Origin: Propionibacteriaceae bacterium
GTDB lineage: Bacteria > Actinomycetota > Actinomycetes > Propionibacteriales > Propionibacteriaceae
Length of the DNA stretch: 32,000 nt
Direction of reading: 5' to 3'
Assembly (NCBI GenBank): GCA_031256725.1
Contig: JAIRQE010000025.1
Span: 30,001-62,000 of the forward strand
The first letter of the stretch is position 1, and each line of letters opens with the position of its first letter. Of the stretch, positions 8,697 to 23,366 are shown piece after piece. The notes beneath the pieces were generated by a model that searched no databases, had not been told where the DNA came from, and saw only the letters and a list, made by a program, of their open reading frames with translations. A program made the translations under genes and the position numbers.

Positions 8697-8844
8697 GAAA
8701 TGCCTTCCGCTGATGGGTGTGTTCACCACCAGGTGAGACCACACCTTGAAACTGTACCGTTGTCACTAATGAGGGTAACGGTGAGACTACACCCCACCAC
8801 TGGGTGAGATCGCAACCCCATCCAATGGTGACTTGTCGATTAAT

Positions 8845-9567
8845 CTACTTAACGTCGCTCACGCCAGAGGCCTGAGTGTAATCCGGCTGGACGTAGTCCC
8901 CTCCAGGGGCAGGAGGCGCAGCGAAAGGCTCACTCGTCTGGGGAGGAAGGGCCGGAGTCTCAGCAGGTGCAGCCGCGGGCGCAGTACCAAAATCAACTGT
9001 CGGAGCCTGACGCATTCCCGGGTCCTGGATCTGGAAGTACTGTGCCTTCGAGAAGCGACCCCCGGCAATCAGAGAGTTCGGGAAGGACTCGATCATGGTG
9101 TTGTAGGAGCCAACATTGGCGTTGTAGTACTTGCGGGCATTGGCGATGCGGGCCTCAATCTCGCTGAGTTCCTTCTGCAACTGGATGAAGGAGGCATTGG
9201 CCTTCAGATCAGGGTACGCCTCCATCGTGACCGAAACGAGGTTCTGCAACTGGGAAGTCAACTGTGCCTCAACGGCGGCTCGTTGGGCTGGGTCAGCATG
9301 GGAACCTGCAAGTGCAGTTGCCTGGTTGCGCAGGCCGATCACCGATTCCAGGGTGGACTTTTCGTGGTCTGTAGCGCCTTTGATGGTGTTGACGAGGTTC
9401 GGGATGAGGTCGTACCGGCGATTCAACTCAACATCGATCTGGTTCCAGGACTCTTCGACAAGATTGCGACCCTGAACCATGCGGTTATAGGCCCCGATGA
9501 CCCACAGGACAACACCTACAACGAGAACAAGAATGACGATAAAGATTAGGCCCACAGTACCCAACAT
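8845..9567 (-). CDS. lemA: LemA-family membrane protein with a Pro/Ala-rich C-terminal tail
   Basis: N-terminal TM followed by YNRMVQGRNLVEESWNQIDVELNRRYDLIPNLVNTIKG, the LemA signature. AAAGGAG SD lies upstream of ATG 9567. Confidence 0.85.
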   Translation of the reverse strand: MLGTVGLIFIVILVLVVGVVLWVIGAYNRMVQGRNLVEESWNQIDVELNRRYDLIPNLVNTIKGATDHEKSTLESVIGLRNQATALAGSHADPAQRAAVEAQLTSQLQNLVSVTMEAYPDLKANASFIQLQKELSEIEARIANARKYYNANVGSYNTMIESFPNSLIAGGRFSKAQYFQIQDPGMRQAPTVDFGTAPAAAPAETPALPPQTSEPFAAPPAPGGDYVQPDYTQASGVSDVK

Positions 9568-9784
9568 GGCAGACTCCTTTGAAAGACTGGATGGTTCCAG
9601 CTTAGCTGAAAAGATCTCTTCGAGTTACAGAATTTTCTGGCAGTACACGTACACAATTCTCATGAGATTAAAGCTGTATTTAACCATTGAGTCATGAAAC
9701 ATTAAGGCTCTTTAGGCGAAAACCCTTATTCAATCCACCAAATTGAGCCTGAGTACCCCAGTAGACCCCTTTTACAGGATCAGC

Positions 9785-9808
9785 GATGAACATATGTGCA
9801 GGTTCATC
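9785..9808. promoter_or_regulatory. Inverted repeat GATGAAC-N10-GTTCATC in the AT-rich cydA upstream region (candidate operator)
   Basis: Perfect 7-bp arms located 52 nt upstream of the cydA ATG. The half-sites resemble Rex/CRP-type TGAAC/GTTCA halves, but the spacing is atypical. Confidence 0.25.
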
Positions 9809-9859
9809 ATTTAGGACTAAGAAATTGCATCTGGCAGCGGAAAGCGATAGGTTCACACT

Positions 9860-11332
9860 ATGAGTCCGGATACCATTGCCAGGTGGCAGTTTGGCATCAC
9901 AACGGTTTACCACTTCTTGTTCGTGCCTCTCACGATTGCATTGAGTGTGTTGACCGCGGTGCTTCAGTCACTCTGGAACAAAACAGGCAATGATGCCTAT
10001 TTGCGTTTGACGAAGTTTTTTGGGCGTTTGTTCCTGATCAACTTCGCCATGGGGGTTGTCACGGGTATCGTGCAGGAGTTCCAGTTCGGTATGAACTGGT
10101 CGGAGTATTCCCGCTTTGTCGGTGATATCTTCGGTGCTCCTCTCGCCCTTGAAGCTCTCATCGCGTTCTTCCTGGAGTCGACATTCATCGGAATGTGGAT
10201 TTTCGGGTGGGATCGCTTGTCCAAGAAGGTACACCTAGTCGTCATTTGGTTGGCTGCTGCGGGTACTTTCATCTCCTCCATCTTCATCATCGCTGCTAAC
10301 GCATGGATGCAGAACCCAACAGGAGCTGTGTACAACGCCGCTAATGGCCGTGCAGAGCTCGATAGCCTCCTGGCTGTCATCCTGAACCCGGTGTTCCTCA
10401 CCCAGTGGCCGCACACCATCGCTGCTTCCTTCGTGACAGCTGGTGCGTTCATCGCTGGCGTAGCTGCGTACCTTCTCATTAAGAAGAACAAGGAAGGCGC
10501 CAAGGATGCTGACCTCGAGGCCTATCGCAAGGGCGTAAAGCTCGGTGCATGGGTTCTCATCGTCGCTGGCGTGTGCACCATCGTTACTGGTGACCTCCTT
10601 GGAAAGCAGATGGTAACCCACCAGCCCGCCAAGATGGCTGCAGCTGAAAACATCCAGGATCCTCAGGAAGCCGGCCAGACCGGATTCCAGATCATCCCAG
10701 GTGTTGAGGTGTTCCCAGGCTTGGTCAACTGGCTCTATGGCTCCGAGAAGGTTCCTTCGATCCCTGAGATCAGAGACAACTTCACTGCCAAGGGTTATCA
10801 GATCTGGGACGGTACCGCATTCGTTGATCCTGATAATGCCCTGCAGACTGCGTTTGCTTCAGAGTTGGCTGCGATCAAGGCTGATATCGATCCAATCCCA
10901 AGTGTTGGCGCTAACTTCTGGTCCTTCCGCTTGATGATTGGTATTGGTTGCCTCGCAATGCTCGGTGGCATTCTCCTGTTGGCCGTTACCCGTGGGAAGA
11001 AGATCCCGAAGCCTAGCGCACTGTGGACTGCCGTTTGCGTAGCTCTGCCGTTGCTCCCGCTTCTGGCTAACACCTTCGGTTGGATCTTCACTGAGATGGG
11101 CCGTCAGCCATATATCGTCAATGGCGTCATGCCGACACTCCAGGGTCTCTCGCCGATTAACGTGGTCCCTGTTGCTTCCGTATGGTTCTCCTTGATCGTG
11201 TACACCCTCGTCTACGGCATCCTTGCTGTGATTGAGGTCGGCTTGCTGCTGAAGTACATCAAGATGGGTCTGCCAGACGAAACCGCTGTTTCCGTCAAGG
11301 ATGAGGCTGAGCCTCTGTCCTTCGCTTACTAA
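9860..11332 (+). CDS. cydA: Cytochrome bd ubiquinol/menaquinol oxidase subunit I
   Basis: MSPDTIARWQFGITTVYHFLFVPLTI..., EFQFGMNWS, and GWIFTEMGRQPYIV are canonical CydA motifs. Confidence 0.95.
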   Translation: MSPDTIARWQFGITTVYHFLFVPLTIALSVLTAVLQSLWNKTGNDAYLRLTKFFGRLFLINFAMGVVTGIVQEFQFGMNWSEYSRFVGDIFGAPLALEALIAFFLESTFIGMWIFGWDRLSKKVHLVVIWLAAAGTFISSIFIIAANAWMQNPTGAVYNAANGRAELDSLLAVILNPVFLTQWPHTIAASFVTAGAFIAGVAAYLLIKKNKEGAKDADLEAYRKGVKLGAWVLIVAGVCTIVTGDLLGKQMVTHQPAKMAAAENIQDPQEAGQTGFQIIPGVEVFPGLVNWLYGSEKVPSIPEIRDNFTAKGYQIWDGTAFVDPDNALQTAFASELAAIKADIDPIPSVGANFWSFRLMIGIGCLAMLGGILLLAVTRGKKIPKPSALWTAVCVALPLLPLLANTFGWIFTEMGRQPYIVNGVMPTLQGLSPINVVPVASVWFSLIVYTLVYGILAVIEVGLLLKYIKMGLPDETAVSVKDEAEPLSFAY

Positions 11333-18730: not shown

Positions 18731-19024
18731 ATGGACTTCCGTATCACTGATTCACGGTTTGAGGCTGTTGGCGATGGTCAGGTCGTGGGATGGCTCGACT
18801 TCACGAACGACAATGGCATGGTCTCTATGACCCATACGGTCGTACCTTCCAAGTACGAGGGACGTGGAATTGGTACCTCCCTTGTTGCCCATGCCCTGAA
18901 TTATGCCCGGGATCATGACTGGCAGGTACTTCCGTACTGTTCCTTTATCCAGGCGTACATCGTAACTCACGAGGGCTATCTCCAATTGGTACCTAAGGAT
19001 CGCCGAGCGGAATTCGTGCTCTAG
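18731..19024 (+). CDS. Small GNAT-family N-acetyltransferase (YjdJ-like single-domain type)
   Basis: The 97-aa protein carries VVPSKYEGRGIGTSLVAHALNYARDHDWQVLPYCSF, typical of the short GNAT_YJDJ-type family. Confidence 0.7.
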   Translation: MDFRITDSRFEAVGDGQVVGWLDFTNDNGMVSMTHTVVPSKYEGRGIGTSLVAHALNYARDHDWQVLPYCSFIQAYIVTHEGYLQLVPKDRRAEFVL

Positions 19025-19213
19025 AGTCAGGCTCCACCATCGGCTACCAAACACCCATCGAAGCCGAAGAACAGTACTACAATCACCATGATACAAACTA
19101 TTCGCCAGTAACCAAGCAGCATAGAAGCCGGGACGGTTCATTGGTGCGGGGTGCTGGGAACACGAAGATCAGAATATCTGATACTACAGTCGATCACCGG
19201 CATCGTAATTGAT

Positions 19214-19675
19214 TCATAGGATGTCCCATTGCGTTGATGCCATTTTGAAAAGGTCATCTATCTGTGCTTGGTACTGGTCGACAAGGGCCAGTTCAGCCGG
19301 GTCCGAAGTCAACGCTCGATGCTGATAATCAAGCATGATTCCCCAGACCTCGGTGCCTTCCTCCGCAGGAAGCCGCACCCCGTATGTTGTTTCCTTCCCG
19401 ATTCCTGGCCAAATAATCAGTGCAAACACACCATTGTAGGTTTGAACACCCAGATTCCCGGTGTAACTCAGATAGTCAGGAAACTTTACGTTGTAGTTGT
19501 AGCCGTTGTCGCCGTCCAAGACGTGAGTTCCAGGGTAGAGTTCTCTCATATCAACGGTGTACGGATCGTATTTGTGTTGAACTACGTTGTACCAGATACA
19601 GTTGTAGACTCCGAATCCGAGCAACACAATTCCTAGCAATATGAGTAATGCTGGGACCTTTCTCTGTTTCTTCAT
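19214..19675 (-). CDS. Membrane-anchored hypothetical protein (N-terminal TM, Tyr/Asn/Gly-rich extracytoplasmic domain); last gene of the bacteriocin cassette and a candidate immunity/accessory factor
   Basis: [28 protein letters not shown]... then a soluble domain. I use ATG 19675, which overlaps the ATPase stop as ATGA (translational coupling); the listed ORF starts at 19693. I do not recognise the family. Confidence 0.6.
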   Translation of the reverse strand: MKKQRKVPALLILLGIVLLGFGVYNCIWYNVVQHKYDPYTVDMRELYPGTHVLDGDNGYNYNVKFPDYLSYTGNLGVQTYNGVFALIIWPGIGKETTYGVRLPAEEGTEVWGIMLDYQHRALTSDPAELALVDQYQAQIDDLFKMASTQWDIL

Positions 19676-20280
19676 AGGTTGACCACTCTCCACCCTCGCG
19701 CCATGATGCTCTCGTCATGGGTCACGACGACGACTGTTTTTCCGGCCCGGTGCAAATCCTCTAATATGGAGACAATTTCCTGAGCGTTTCCTCGATCAAG
19801 AGATCCTGTGGGTTCATCTGCAAGAATCACGTCGCACTTCTTAACCATAAGACGGGCTAACGCAACGCGTTGCTGTTCACCTCCAGAAAGCGTGTATACC
19901 TTGTCGTCTACTCGGTGCGCCAGACCTACTCTCTCAAGGGCTTGGTCGATTCCCAACTCGGCTGAACTGACCTTGGTAACCAATCGCAAATTCTGTCGAA
20001 CCGTTTTGTCATCGATCAGAACGAAGTTTTGGAAGACGAAACCCACCTTTTCCTTAAAAAGGAAACGGTGGTTTCGCTGTTGATTAACATCAATATCATC
20101 GATAGTGACGACACCTTTGTCGAACTTCTCCAATGCTCCGATGATATTGAGTAAAGTGGTCTTGCCGGAACCACTCGCCCCACAGAGAGCGACAATCTCA
20201 CCGGTGTCAACTGTGAGAGAAAAGTTGGTGAACAGATGGTTTGATCCGAAAGACTTGCACAAATCACTTATTTTGATCAC
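19672..20280 (-). CDS. ABC transporter ATP-binding protein (MacB/LolD-like; lactococcin-972-group bacteriocin exporter type)
   Basis: Walker [10 protein letters not shown], signature LSGGEQQR, Walker [12 protein letters not shown]. Its GTG start overlaps the stop of the upstream membrane-protein gene (GTGA). Confidence 0.9.
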
Positions 20281-22196
20281 AATGTTGCCCCCTTCGACAC
20301 TCGTTGGAAACTTATCCGGCTGTACTTTCGCATGTAATGAAGAGTCACGCTGAGATCCAGGAGCAGAAGAACACCGCCCCCAACCCCCAAGTACGCAACT
20401 GAACGGATACCCGCTAAGGGGGCAAGGTTGATGCTAACGACAACAGCGAGCAGCGTGGTTATGACCAACAAAGCGAATGTGCGTAGATTGATCCGCGCCA
20501 CGGTATAGCCATGCAACCTCATCAAAGAGCGCTCGGTCGCGTTAATGGTATAGTCGAAAAGAAGCAGGCTGCGGGTAACCATGCTACTGATGCCGACAAC
20601 CAGGAACAGCATGACTAACCCGATCATGATACTACGATCAACAAGTTTCAAATGATATTGGTAATTCGCGTAGGCGTTGGTTAAGTAGTGAAGTTCAGTT
20701 GCCACTTCGGCCTCTGACACAAACTCCTCGAAATCGGCGCTGCTAATATTAAAGAGTGTACTCGCAGAGATGTATCCAGGGTTTCGCAGATGCTCAATGC
20801 TTGATGGACCTAAGTTATTTAAAATGATAATCGGATTACGTTTTATTGAGGTAAATACAACACCCTGATTGCTAATTGCTATTACATCGGTCGTCCTACA
20901 CTCGACAATTTCAAAATCATATTCCTGATCGTAATAGGACCACCAAATGTCCATCATATCTGACTCAATATTATCCAAACCGAAGTATGTTCTTGGTACG
21001 AGGAAGTAAACCTTTCTGTCAAGGATTGTCCCCTCGAGTTCTGGAATGACCGACTGAAGATAAGGCAGCGCGCTTGCGTCGGAATACACGTATTCCGCAG
21101 CGGTGTTCCAACTCTCAAGATCAACAATCGTCATAGTTTGTTTCTGTGCTGCAAAGAAAAACATTATGGATTTACTAATACTAAAATCACTATTTGCTTC
21201 AGCGCTGATGTTTACATAGTTGAAGTCGGCATGCTGCTCAAAAAAAGGCTTTTGGCGGTAGTAGTCGGCGCCGTCTGCGATAAACTTGACATTCCCAGAC
21301 ATGATGATGATAGCGAACAAGATTACCACTACCTTATAAATAAAACTGAGCCACAGAATTCTCTTCGCGCCCTGTCGTGTATTTACATCCTTTCGGAAGT
21401 CAAAACGTAGCAATCTCATATACTGGAGGGAGTTGCTGACAAGGAAGACGGCTACACTCAAGCCGGTGAGATGCACCATGTAGGATGCGTTTGTGAACTC
21501 ACTTAATAGGAGAATCATCGCGGTAATGGTAACAGAATAGAATACTAAATCTCTGAGAATGTTGGAGGCGATGAAGACAGAAAGTGATTGTCCTGAGGTG
21601 ACACGCACCAAAACCTCACGCTTCATCAGAGCTGCCTCGTAAGTGGACATAAGTAAGAGCAAGCCGAAGACAGCAAACCACACCCCCAGAACATTATATG
21701 CATCTCCTAGCGATCGCATTGGCTGTTGGGGGTATCTACCCCCATAGCTATCGATCAGTATCTGCTTGAAGCTGATCTGGTCATCCATATCTCCGATTAG
21801 ATAGAGGACGTCTGGAGTGCGATCTGTGGGCCATTCCTCCACTGAGAAGAACCTCACCGTTACATCACCAATAAAGATACTACTGAGTGTGCCCGACCGA
21901 ATATGTCCCTTGTTCGTCAAGACATCCTTTGCTCCATCCGTCGAGAAGATATTCATGGTGATCGAAAAAATACTCTCAACATCTCTTGCCACCAAGAAGA
22001 ACTCGATGTCTGTTTGATGCGCGGCATCAAGCACGTCGGCTATTAGCTGAGAGTTCGGAGCAGATTCCTTTACGCTGAAAGTGGTGTACGCGTAATCGGT
22101 TTCGAATGAGCTAATATGCCATACATAGAATTCGCCGATCAATACGAGAGCACTGAACATCAGAATAGCACTTGTGAAATACTTCGCTTTCTTCAT
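20277..22196 (-). CDS. Bacteriocin-associated polytopic integral membrane protein (DUF1430 / bact_immun_7tm-like; putative permease/immunity component)
   Basis: 639 aa laid out as an N-terminal TM, an extracytoplasmic domain of about 150 aa, a cluster of about 4 TMs, a second soluble domain of about 220 aa, and about 3 C-terminal TMs. It is AT-rich, has an AAAGGGA SD, and lies between a small secreted peptide gene and an ABC ATPase. Confidence 0.65.
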   Translation of the reverse strand: MKKAKYFTSAILMFSALVLIGEFYVWHISSFETDYAYTTFSVKESAPNSQLIADVLDAAHQTDIEFFLVARDVESIFSITMNIFSTDGAKDVLTNKGHIRSGTLSSIFIGDVTVRFFSVEEWPTDRTPDVLYLIGDMDDQISFKQILIDSYGGRYPQQPMRSLGDAYNVLGVWFAVFGLLLLMSTYEAALMKREVLVRVTSGQSLSVFIASNILRDLVFYSVTITAMILLLSEFTNASYMVHLTGLSVAVFLVSNSLQYMRLLRFDFRKDVNTRQGAKRILWLSFIYKVVVILFAIIIMSGNVKFIADGADYYRQKPFFEQHADFNYVNISAEANSDFSISKSIMFFFAAQKQTMTIVDLESWNTAAEYVYSDASALPYLQSVIPELEGTILDRKVYFLVPRTYFGLDNIESDMMDIWWSYYDQEYDFEIVECRTTDVIAISNQGVVFTSIKRNPIIILNNLGPSSIEHLRNPGYISASTLFNISSADFEEFVSEAEVATELHYLTNAYANYQYHLKLVDRSIMIGLVMLFLVVGISSMVTRSLLLFDYTINATERSLMRLHGYTVARINLRTFALLVITTLLAVVVSINLAPLAGIRSVAYLGVGGGVLLLLDLSVTLHYMRKYSRISFQRVSKGATL

Positions 22197-22239
22197 GTAA
22201 TATCCCTTTACGCGACAAGTACAGTATTCACCGTCGAAT

Positions 22240-22295
22240 TTGAACTGAAAGAAGATGCGCAGAGGTGTTGGTGTTGAAGCAGTCCTCTGCGCATC
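22240..22295 (-). terminator. Intrinsic terminator/attenuator between the bacteriocin structural gene and the transporter genes
   Basis: Perfect 12-bp inverted repeat GATGCGCAGAGG (22254-22265) / CCTCTGCGCATC (22284-22295). In the minus-strand transcript it is followed by TTCTTTCAGTT. Confidence 0.6.
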
Positions 22296-22303
22296 TCACA
22301 GTG

Positions 22304-22666
22304 TTAGAAGTTGCAGTAGTATTCGTAGGTCGCGATGGCCGTATGGGTGATTTCGATCTTCGATACAGCCGTTACACTCTTTGTCGGGCCGGCATAGGTT
22401 CCTTTGCCGTTCTTCAGCGAAGCGTAGTGGGTGAGTGTGCTGTGATTCGCCCAGGCATAGTCTTCATGGATGGCGGTCGTGTTGAACCCATATGTGAGGG
22501 CGGCACGATTGCTGTCTCCCGAGGTGTACAACTGCCAAGCTGAGGTGAACCCCGTATTACCGTGGGTCGCCTTGAGTTGTCCTGCGTGGGCGGTGGCTCC
22601 TGGTACTGCGACGATCGCGATTCCACAGGCAAGTGCAAAGGTAATCAGCCTTCGAGCAATCTTCAT
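22304..22666 (-). CDS. Lactococcin-972-family bacteriocin precursor (candidate)
   Basis: 120 aa with a Sec signal MKIARRLITFALACGIAIVAVPGATAHA|GQ. The mature part carries HSTLTHYASL and a C-terminal ATYEYYCNF. My recollection of Lcn972 has HGSKTHSATV and ASFYYNFW at the matching places. It is immediately upstream of a large polytopic membrane protein and an ABC ATPase. GGGAGA SD at 22672-22677. Confidence 0.6.
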   Translation of the reverse strand: MKIARRLITFALACGIAIVAVPGATAHAGQLKATHGNTGFTSAWQLYTSGDSNRAALTYGFNTTAIHEDYAWANHSTLTHYASLKNGKGTYAGPTKSVTAVSKIEITHTAIATYEYYCNF

Positions 22667-22682
22667 GATAATCTCCCATCAT

Positions 22683-22735
22683 ATTATAGCAATATTGCTG
22701 CGTTCAGTCTATTCTTTATATTGATAAGTAGTCAA
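22683..22735 (-). promoter_or_regulatory. Promoter region of the bacteriocin gene with two overlapping candidate sigma-70-type promoters and a 10-bp palindrome
   Basis: The reverse strand reads TTGACT (22730-22735), 18 nt, TAGACT (22706-22711), 17 nt, TATAAT (22683-22688). A perfect palindrome GCAATATTGC lies at 22689-22698 between the last two hexamers. Confidence 0.45.
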
Positions 22736-22760
22736 GTTCACGACGACAATCATAAGTAGT

Positions 22761-22823
22761 GCCCGCGAAGTGGGTGCCCATGTATCACTTGGTTTTGCCC
22801 GCGAAACCTGTGGGGCGCGAAAC
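22761..22823 (+). repeat. Three direct copies of a GC-rich motif (GCCCGCGAA / GCCCGCGAAAC / GCGCGAAAC) at the islet border
   Basis: Copies at 22761-22769, 22797-22807 and 22815-22823. They lie between the bacteriocin promoter and the transposase fragment. Confidence 0.5.
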
Positions 22824-22882
22824 ACTAGGTTCTGCTAGAACGCTGTCATGGATAGCATGGTAGATGGTTTCTGCTTCCACTG

Positions 22883-23101
22883 TTGGGATGTCTCCACAGT
22901 ATCTGTGACAACTTTTGTACTGAACATGGTATTGCCAGGAAAAGGTTTTATGCGATTCGTCGTCGGGTTTGTGAGGATGGCCCAGATTCGTCGTTGGAAC
23001 CTCGAAGTCGCCGACCGGTTCGTAGTCCGACCCGACTACCGGACCAGGCCCGTATAGAGGCGCTACAGGTCAGGGCGTCGTTGGAGGCGTCAGGGTTGGG
23101 C
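22883..23101 (+). pseudogene. Fragment of an IS481-like (rve-integrase type) transposase gene, N-terminal HTH region only
   Basis: The translation ...HGIARKRFYAIRRRVCEDGPDSSLEPRSRRPVRSPTRLPDQARIEALQVRASLEASGLG resembles the conserved GISRKTFY...LEPRSRRP...ALEASGL N-terminus of actinobacterial IS481-family transposases. No integrase core follows, and the frame degenerates after about 23101. Confidence 0.55.
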
Positions 23102-23366
23102 TCCGGAGAATACCTATTGTTATTTGCATTCGACATGACTCTAACCTTCCTCTCAAATCAAACAGAGTCAAGGGTAAAACCGTGAACCAAGGCGATACCC
23201 TCTCCCTCATTCTCACGCGCCTTCGACCACCTCAAGGGATAGCCAAGACAAGCGTTATTGCCACCAGTCAGGCGGACATTTAAGTGAGGCATCCCTCAAC
23301 TTTTCCCGGACAACTGATGATGAGGCAAGACGCTCATCAAACCGGGGAGAGCGTACTATTGCATCC

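Follow-up and report, generated by a model that had tools for sequence, protein, structure and literature searches.

A candidate mediterrocin-family bacteriocin operon on an inserted block of a Propionibacteriaceae chromosome

Mediterraneibacter gnavus secretes an 89-aa bacteriocin, mediterrocin, that was purified and knocked out in 2025 (PMC12345188). Its signal peptide of 25 aa and its mature part of 89 aa were defined by mass spectrometry, and an AlphaFold model of the protein resembles PDB entry 2LGN (PMC12345188). The cluster holds mdcF for the bacteriocin, mdcG for a likely secreted protein without assigned role, mdcH for a DUF1430 protein with 7 transmembrane (TM) helices and mdcI for an ATP-binding cassette (ABC) protein, and the paper reports Bacillota only (PMC12345188). 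Clusters like that of lactococcin 972 (Lcn972) have been mined in the actinobacteria Propionibacterium (Cutibacterium) acnes and Bifidobacterium longum subsp. infantis (PMC4289311), and in Brevibacterium a strain-specific island carries an Lcn972-like operon of four genes, for a bacteriocin, two transmembrane proteins and an ABC ATPase (PMC5719810). Here we describe a related four-gene operon in a window of 32,000 nt, the whole stretch of DNA that was analysed (GenBank assembly GCA_031256725.1, contig JAIRQE010000025.1, positions 30,001 to 62,000). The source is a 162-kb contig in a metagenome-assembled genome (MAG) of a Propionibacteriaceae bacterium, and the locus tags are LBG99_08505 and LBG99_08510. 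An original prediction, made from this DNA without database searches, had stated that Lcn972 is characterised only in Lactococcus, a view which the papers cited above make outdated.

The operon consists of four co-oriented open reading frames (ORFs) on the minus strand, which code for proteins of 120, 639, 202 and 153 aa (Table 1). We read it as an apparently intact, horizontally acquired operon that probably encodes a mediterrocin-family bacteriocin together with the self-protection of its producer, and from the sequence comparisons described below we give this reading a probability of about 0.78. The original prediction had located the same four ORFs, all of which were present, and had named the unit an Lcn972-type cassette. 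Its architecture and its membership in the superfamily were borne out; the family was not the expected one, as the small protein belongs to the mediterrocin family NF052268.

The 120-aa protein scored 110.8 bits (E 3.8e-32; cut-off 40) with the NCBIfam model NF052268 ('mediterrocin family bacteriocin'), over residues 1-120 and model positions 1-115. The same model was matched by its close relatives (8 of 8) and by its wider relatives (148 of 148). The wider family came from 226 clusters that a profile search retrieved at E <= 1e-3 among 1.84 billion representatives; 148 of these clusters were scanned. Identity of the protein was 37% to mediterrocin and 45-68% to its closest homologues, and the near-invariant family residues F40, W44, Y59, G60, E68, D69 and H108 were kept. 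The only host names among 20 family representatives were Clostridium polysaccharolyticum and Turicibacter; the others are metagenome proteins. No Pfam model matched the 120-aa protein, sequence and profile searches of the PDB with it returned nothing meaningful, and the plasmid collection held no match for the bacteriocin.

Secretion of the 120-aa protein, as foreseen, agreed with a heuristic hydropathy reading, in which a basic MKIARR n-region and a hydrophobic core are followed by AHA before G29, in the manner of a Sec-type signal peptide. We infer cleavage after AHA (Ala28) from this sequence and from the signal peptide that mass spectrometry defined in mediterrocin. The predicted mature protein comprises residues 29-120 (92 aa, about 10.0 kDa, pI about 8.1, one Cys). 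A lipoprotein reading of the L-A-C-G sequence at residues 12-15 was rejected because the Cys falls within the hydrophobic core and precedes a good AXA site by 14 residues; it is also contradicted by the mass spectrometry of mediterrocin, in which the signal peptide was cleaved plainly. Lipobox-like L/I-A-C-G sequences within the hydrophobic core were common in the signal peptides of the family and were seen in the window protein (22625-22633, residues 12-14) and in P0003, P0005, P0006 and P0008. Given the ordinary signal-peptidase cleavage of mediterrocin, the motif is probably irrelevant. A short stretch of a predicted viral contig (IMG/VR UViG_3300029238_000248, L026:6001-6114, GC 0.545) was 42% identical to bacteriocin residues 60-97; none of the family profiles matched this contig, and the match is probably spurious.

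Contig L025 (MT839570.1, 4183 bp, from human faeces) codes for a precursor of 114 aa that contains the published tryptic peptide NGNGSFSGSNVGK of mediterrocin at residues 81-93. The average mass of its 89-aa mature part gives a 12+ ion of m/z 811.21, compared with the published value of 811.22. By sequence, the L025 precursor is almost certainly mediterrocin itself. The contig is labelled 'UNVERIFIED: Bacteriophage sp.'; nothing phage-like was seen on it and the label is probably wrong. L025 also codes for a homologue of the fourth window gene, a membrane protein and an ATPase. Compared with their L025 counterparts, the window bacteriocin was 37% identical, the membrane protein 21%, the ATPase 50% and the anchored protein 28%, and the three partner proteins were homologous to those of L025 by blastp (E 1e-16, 2e-71 and 6e-14) and by profile (E 8e-60 and 1.5e-28).

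The window operon and the mediterrocin cluster thus share the NF052268 family and the same four core genes. These encode a bacteriocin, a membrane protein of the DUF1430 lineage, an ATPase of 202 aa and a small protein with a membrane anchor. Both bacteriocins are Sec-secreted, about 90 aa long and unmodified, as predicted for the window protein. Both gene sets lie on low-GC mobile DNA beside genes of mobile elements. They differ in gene order, since the gene for the anchored protein is last in the window and second in the mediterrocin cluster, in the phylum of the host, which is Actinomycetota for the window, and in that regulator and integrase genes are not adjacent in the window.

The relation to Lcn972 itself was more distant. 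The original prediction expected the small protein to match PF09683 and TIGR01653, and neither model matched it even at E <= 10. Of 148 family members, TIGR01653 detected 22 (best E 3.6e-6) and PF09683 detected 3 (best E 1.9e-4). An hhalign comparison of the family profile with Lcn972, the sequence of which was checked against PDB entry 2LGN before use, gave an E of 0.002 and a probability of 14% over the HxSxxTHxA...SK core. An AlphaFold2 model of the bacteriocin from an alignment of 8 sequences had a predicted local distance difference test (pLDDT) score of 48.6, and a Foldseek search with this low-confidence model ranked 2LGN first among 350,542 PDB chains (E 0.18, probability 0.96, target TM-score 0.52, 54 columns). 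Judged from these comparisons, the mediterrocin family forms a divergent branch within the Lcn972 superfamily and the window protein lies outside the Lcn972 family as defined by Pfam and TIGRFAM.

The Lcn972 operon of plasmid pBL1 of Lactococcus lactis (L021) has the same layout as the window operon, with a small, beta-rich, Sec-secreted bacteriocin, a hairpin, a membrane protein of about 640 aa and an ATPase of about 205 aa. Lcn972 and the window family also share the motif HxSxxTHxA and an aromatic tail at the C-terminus. However, neither the small protein nor the membrane protein of the window has significant direct sequence similarity to its pBL1 counterpart, the predicted mature peptide of the window is about 26 aa longer than that of Lcn972, and pBL1 lacks a homologue of the fourth window gene. 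According to the original prediction, an actinobacterial variant would stand out by a longer mature peptide and by a fourth gene; both proved to be traits of the whole family. The mined Lcn972-like clusters (PMC4289311, PMC5719810) share actinobacterial hosts with the window. Compared by description only, their precursors are PF09683/Lcn972 matches, whereas the window protein is not. The Brevibacterium island is located at a tRNA-Val gene (PMC5719810), whereas the block described below lies in a spacer between protein genes of a window in which scans for tRNA and Rfam families found no RNA genes.

The 639-aa protein had full-length homologues at 30-43% identity in 17 loci. Kyte-Doolittle plots gave eight hydrophobic peaks. 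Two large loops of about 137 and 224 aa were acidic and the shorter loops and the termini were basic, in agreement with the polytopic protein with two large extracytoplasmic domains that had been predicted, and the eight-peak pattern matches that of the pBL1 membrane protein. In sequence no similarity between these two proteins was found by direct or profile comparison. Matches to PF07242 and TIGR01654 had also been predicted. The 639-aa protein matched no Pfam family, PF07242 included, and reached 18.6 bits with TIGR01654 over residues 171-328 (E 5e-4), compared with a cut-off of 189.35. Its homologues P0012 and P0013 (33-34% identity, 100% coverage, E about 1e-114) pass PF07242 with 34-36 bits at a cut-off of 28.2, and so carry DUF1430. 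This model was matched by 5 of 11 aligned homologues on their C-terminal 100 residues or so, a region that corresponds to the last three TM helices and in which the pBL1 protein weakly matches FtsX (E 0.005). DUF1430 and FtsX belong to one Pfam clan (PMC6588880). Sequence and profile searches of the PDB with the 639-aa family gave nothing meaningful, and the only match in the plasmid collection was at 17% identity. An AlphaFold2 model from 7 sequences had a pLDDT of 49.4, and the top Foldseek matches of this poor model were FtsX, HrtB, BceB and LolC/E (E 0.16-1.8). The hydropathy and charge pattern is compatible with two FtsX-type four-helix modules, in which a large outside domain lies between helices 1 and 2. 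The Pfam clan, the weak FtsX match of the pBL1 homologue, the topology, the weak Foldseek matches and the MacB-type models matched by the ATPase make the protein a putative FtsX-like permease.

TIGR03608 (L_ocin_972_ABC) was the best model for the ATPase, 59 bits over FtsE; the match that had been predicted to it reached 232.6 bits and fell narrowly under the cut-off of 254.85. The next models were FtsE, DevA, DarD, MacB and LolD (E 1e-42 to 5e-51), in line with the proposed MacB/LolD-like assignment. Identity of the ATPase was 42% to that of pBL1, 50% to that of the mediterrocin cluster and 55-66% to those of the closest cassettes. The Walker A (GASGSGKTT), signature (LSGGEQQR), Walker B (ILADEPTG) and H-loop (THD) motifs are intact.

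The fourth ORF reads 159 aa from the first GTG (19693) or 153 aa from an ATG (19675), and the 153-aa start was preferred because the homologues are 151-153 aa long. Its product has one N-terminal hydrophobic helix, as expected of the membrane-anchored protein proposed before, and a domain of about 120 aa that is predicted to face outward. Neither the protein nor its family matched anything in sequence searches of Pfam, NCBIfam or the PDB. Each of the 14 related loci of sufficient length contained the gene. In L025 its homologue takes the position of mdcG, with the mediterrocin gene on one side and the membrane-protein gene on the other (profile E 1.5e-28; blastp 28%, E 6e-14). The gene is absent from pBL1 and from pSsal-YU10, a plasmid cluster of Lcn972 type in Streptococcus salivarius. 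The presence in 14 of 14 loci and in L025 and the absence from the Lcn972-type clusters indicate that this gene belongs to the conserved core of the mediterrocin branch, although its position varies.

Start and stop codons overlap as GTGA between the membrane-protein and ATPase genes (...ACATTGTGATCAAA...) and as ATGA between the ATPase gene and the fourth gene (...CAACCTATGAAGAAA...); both overlaps, already noted in the original prediction, were read directly in the sequence. The same four genes with the same order and overlaps were found in loci L001-L009, L018 and L019, which come from Niallia taxi, Lachnospiraceae, Faecousia, Oscillospiraceae and gut contigs, and identities between the window and these four-gene loci were 30-42% for the membrane protein and 35-53% for the fourth protein. 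In four further loci (L010-L013) the genes for the membrane protein, the ATPase and the anchored protein occur without a mediterrocin-like ORF in any frame. In L011-L013 these orphan modules come directly after genes for a response regulator of OmpR type and a HisKA kinase, in L010 after a Peptidase_S41 gene, and from their gene content they look like stand-alone resistance modules. A scan of GTDB representatives gave four loci, all from Bacillota, and a metagenome scan gave four more with GC of 0.33-0.49; both scans relied on exact matches to two peptide patterns. Such narrow scans support no claim that the window locus is the sole actinobacterial member. The closest sampled donor was no nearer than 43-68% protein identity.

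The operon lies on a block between a GNAT gene and a MaoC gene, in the order cydA-cydB-cydDC-SIMPL-Thump_like-GNAT-[block]-MaoC-PDT-ADK. In the window 4342 bp separate GNAT from MaoC; in L014/L015 the spacer has 211 bp and in L016 it has 336 bp. These two related Propionibacteriaceae MAGs keep the order Thump_like(-)-GNAT-MaoC-PDT-ADK without the block, and the MaoC of L014/L015 is 66% identical to that of the window. The flanks matched the relatives at 67-81% nucleotide identity, and within 19025-23366 no nucleotide match was found. The block could not be delimited exactly, as the relatives' intergenic DNA has diverged beyond alignment. A search for target-site duplications and terminal inverted repeats at the block ends found none. 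Two tandem copies of 104 nt (99% identity) and an inverted arm of 41 nt were seen in the GNAT-MaoC spacer of L016 (L016:7677-7924); they resemble a small repeat element, and the spacer may be prone to insertion.

GC content was 0.478 in the block and 0.541 in the whole window. In sliding windows it was 0.43-0.50 over 19001-23000 and 0.52-0.60 over most of the window, which confirms the AT-richer islet that had been suggested from hand counts. Three of the four operon genes were 4.7-6.4 standard deviations (sd) under 18 host genes in total GC, and the same three were 1.3-2.1 sd under the host in GC at third codon positions (GC3; 0.53-0.56 vs 0.62). As the GC3 deficit is small compared with that of total GC, codon positions 1 and 2 account for much of the decrease. 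The GC3 of the cassette is well above that of low-GC homologues (0.28-0.33); that of L009 overlaps it. Synonymous codon usage of the cassette deviates from the host, with a correlation of 0.35 compared with 0.89 between two halves of the host genes. This pattern suggests foreign DNA that is partly ameliorated, or a donor with intermediate GC.

At the right border, the ORF at 22883-23185 matched NF033577 of the IS481 family at model positions 18-79 of 284 (E 1.6e-7, 31 bits, cut-off 224) and HTH_32 (E 3e-4), so that the IS481-like fragment of the original prediction comprises the N-terminal HTH part only. With 181 bp left between the fragment and MaoC, the DDE domain is missing. No complete IS481 element was found, as the DDE transposase is incomplete and convincing inverted repeats were not found; the sequence is a remnant. 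An independent Logan assembly of run SRR14710887 was 100% identical to the window from 22859 to 15304, about 7.5 kb across the left junction, and carried the cassette together with 3.9 kb of host DNA. The identity across the junction argues against a chimeric join. The assembly ends at 22859, 24 nt before the IS481 ORF, which fits repeated DNA in the fragment and suggests further IS481 copies in the genome or sample. The spacer comparison, the composition, the codon usage and the IS481 fragment together mark the block as horizontally acquired, as had been thought likely before.

Upstream of the bacteriocin gene, a candidate promoter was found at 22711-22683 that consists of TAGACT and TATAAT separated by 17 nt, with a TG-extended -10 element and 10 of 12 matches; a TTGACT lies at 22735. 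A ribosome-binding site, GGGAG(A), is located 6 nt ahead of the bacteriocin ATG at 22666. The intergenic RNA of 110 nt that includes the hairpin between the bacteriocin and membrane-protein genes had a minimum free energy of -33.3 kcal/mol (z -3.6), and none of 200 shuffled sequences was as stable. A strong hairpin directly 3' of the bacteriocin gene was also present in L001, L005, L007, L008, L009, L019 and pBL1, with unrelated stem sequences. The hairpin is conserved by position and not by sequence, and its structure and place make it a likely partial terminator or stabiliser of mRNA.

We propose the following working for the operon. A single promoter upstream of 22666 would drive all four genes, and the hairpin would terminate or stabilise part of the transcripts so that the bacteriocin message may exceed the downstream message. 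The 120-aa precursor would be exported by Sec and cut after Ala28, and the product would be a beta-rich protein of about 92 aa without modifications. Its target is likely a cell-wall precursor such as lipid II, by analogy with Lcn972, which binds lipid II and inhibits septum formation. The three coupled downstream genes would form a self-immunity machine from a DUF1430-lineage permease with 7-8 TM helices, an ATPase of MacB/FtsE/LolD type and an mdcG-like anchored outside protein. By analogy with BceAB and MacB of the type VII systems, ATP hydrolysis inside the cell might move the outside domains and strip the bacteriocin from its envelope target without transporting it, and the anchored protein may act as an outside partner or as a bacteriocin-binding subunit. 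Immunity rather than export is favoured for the ABC module because the precursor uses Sec and because the trio circulates without a bacteriocin behind two-component systems.

The type VII systems (MacB/FtsEX/LolCDE/BceAB/HrtBA) share with the window the ATPase subfamily and a permease with large outward domains and an FtsX-clan helix bundle at the C-terminus. Bce modules lie behind two-component systems, as orphan modules do, and it is mechanotransmission or target protection of this kind that we propose for the trio. However, the window permease has no significant match to FtsX in Pfam and eight hydrophobic peaks compared with 10 TM helices in BceB, the window system has an extra anchored subunit, and the structural likeness comes from a low-confidence model. 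The LanI and LanFEG proteins (NisI/NisFEG) follow the same logic, in that an anchored outside protein and an ABC system act against a cell-wall-targeting peptide. They are not homologous to the window system. LanFEG permeases are of ABC-2 type and LanI is a lipoprotein, whereas the fourth window protein has a signal-anchor helix and no lipobox. We suggest, tentatively and with less than even confidence, that the trio is a hitherto unrecognised three-component, Bce-like ABC machine for target protection with an obligatory mdcG-like subunit, which travels with mediterrocin-type bacteriocins and also alone under two-component control. If this were true, the transfer to Actinomycetota would show that neither the target of the bacteriocin nor the mechanism of immunity is confined to one Gram-positive phylum.

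Several observations weigh against the bacteriocin and self-protection reading as a whole. Promoter-like sites were no more frequent in the region than expected by chance (7, compared with 6.0 +/- 2.7 in shuffled sequences), so that its position alone favours the promoter candidate, and the U-tract after the hairpin is poor. No regulator gene accompanies the operon, whereas the Firmicute loci adjoin genes of Agr type, two-component genes or sigma/HTH genes. The 120-aa protein failed the Lcn972 models and the 639-aa protein failed the DUF1430 models. Both AlphaFold models were of low confidence (pLDDT 48.6 and 49.4) with non-significant fold matches (E 0.16-0.18), and an internal duplication of four TM helices sought by hhalign between the N- and C-terminal halves of the 639-aa family was not found (E 0.19). 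Lipid II binding has been demonstrated only for Lcn972 (literature cited in PMC12345188), and the locus comes from a MAG.

The membrane protein and the ATPase might instead be a dedicated exporter or processor of the bacteriocin, with immunity, if any, left to the fourth protein alone. Dedicated ABC exporters are found in many bacteriocin operons, TIGR03608 is named 'putative bacteriocin export ABC transporter', and the size and anchoring of the fourth protein are typical of small immunity proteins. We nevertheless think this unlikely, as the precursor carries a signal peptide of the classical Sec type rather than a double-glycine leader, mediterrocin loses its Sec signal peptide on release (PMC12345188), copies of the three-gene module exist that lack a bacteriocin gene, some of them behind a two-component system, and the ATPase falls into the MacB/FtsE/LolD group and not among the peptidase-containing exporters. 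It is very unlikely that the small protein has a role other than an antimicrobial one here, for example as a signalling or cell-envelope factor, with the ABC module serving another envelope stress: although activity was demonstrated for a single family member (PMC12345188), to which the window protein is only 37% identical, the match is strong and at equivalog level, core motifs are common to the protein and mediterrocin, and the gene partnership is that of the mediterrocin and Lcn972 operons.

The remaining explanations concern the state and origin of the cassette. It might be a silent or decaying passenger that came with the insertion sequence and lost its regulators, or of which only resistance is kept. 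The islet without a regulator gene, the adjacent truncated IS481, the weak promoter evidence and the MAG source would fit such a passenger, but all four ORFs are intact and full-length, translational coupling, near-invariant residues and ATPase motifs are kept, and a GC3 of 0.53-0.65, compared with 0.62 in the host and 0.28-0.33 in the Firmicute versions, suggests long residence under selection; we regard a passenger as improbable. Hardly credible is an artefact of assembly or binning that placed a Firmicute-type cassette on an actinobacterial chromosome. The source is a MAG and every other taxonomically placed locus is from Bacillota, but the cassette sits within one intergenic spacer with syntenic Propionibacteriaceae genes 200-700 bp away on both sides, the Logan assembly of SRR14710887 reproduces it with host DNA at 100% identity, its GC3 is far from that of low-GC homologues with the overlap of L009, and the closest donor is distant in protein identity.

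The family, the cluster, the curated model and actinobacterial Lcn972-like clusters were known already. A mediterrocin-branch cassette in a Propionibacteriaceae chromosome is new, as is what the comparison across families shows for mdcG, for the orphan modules and for the hairpin. The locus extends the mediterrocin family to an actinobacterial chromosome and indicates a transfer across phyla, apparently with time for partial adaptation to the composition of the host. For the family as a whole, the comparison places the protein of the mdcG position in a four-gene core, suggests that the immunity genes circulate alone behind two-component systems, and adds a hairpin common to the Lcn972 operon. 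The general understanding of such systems is unchanged; the locus is a useful extension and no surprise.

Table 1. Features of the operon, of the surrounding block and of related loci. Positions without a prefix are those of the window.
Feature	Position	Strand	Basis or description
Mediterrocin-family bacteriocin precursor, 120 aa	22304..22666	-	NF052268
Predicted signal peptide, residues 1-28	22583-22666	-	heuristic hydropathy reading
Polytopic membrane protein, 639 aa, DUF1430 / 'bacteriocin-associated integral membrane protein' lineage	20277..22196	-	homologues, hydropathy
ABC ATPase, MacB/LolD/FtsE type, 202 aa	19672..20280	-	ABC_tran E 7e-35
Membrane-anchored protein, 153 aa, N-terminal TM helix and predicted outside domain of about 120 aa	19214..19675	-	homologues, hydropathy
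Promoter-like region upstream of bacteriocin gene	22683..22735	-	sequence match
Hairpin between bacteriocin and membrane-protein genes	22253..22296	-	13-14-bp perfect stem, 18-nt loop, then UCUUCUUUCAGUU
Inserted block, maximum extent (GNAT stop to MaoC start)	19025..23366	.	spacer comparison with relatives
IS481-family transposase fragment, N-terminal HTH part only	22883..23185	+	NF033577, HTH_32
Equivalent hairpins	L001:5495-5576; L005:6649-6700; L007:1092-1178; L008:8367-8477; L009:8244-8314; L019:6376-6465; L021:3516-3570		
Orphan three-gene modules	L010:2131-5107; L011:6032-10974; L012:396-5338; L013:414-4658		

A second dip in GC (0.448) was observed at 9501-10000, just upstream of cydA (9860-11332). 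Two overlapping ORFs of about 240 aa on opposite strands end there, at 8833-9549 on the plus strand and at 8845-9567 on the minus strand.

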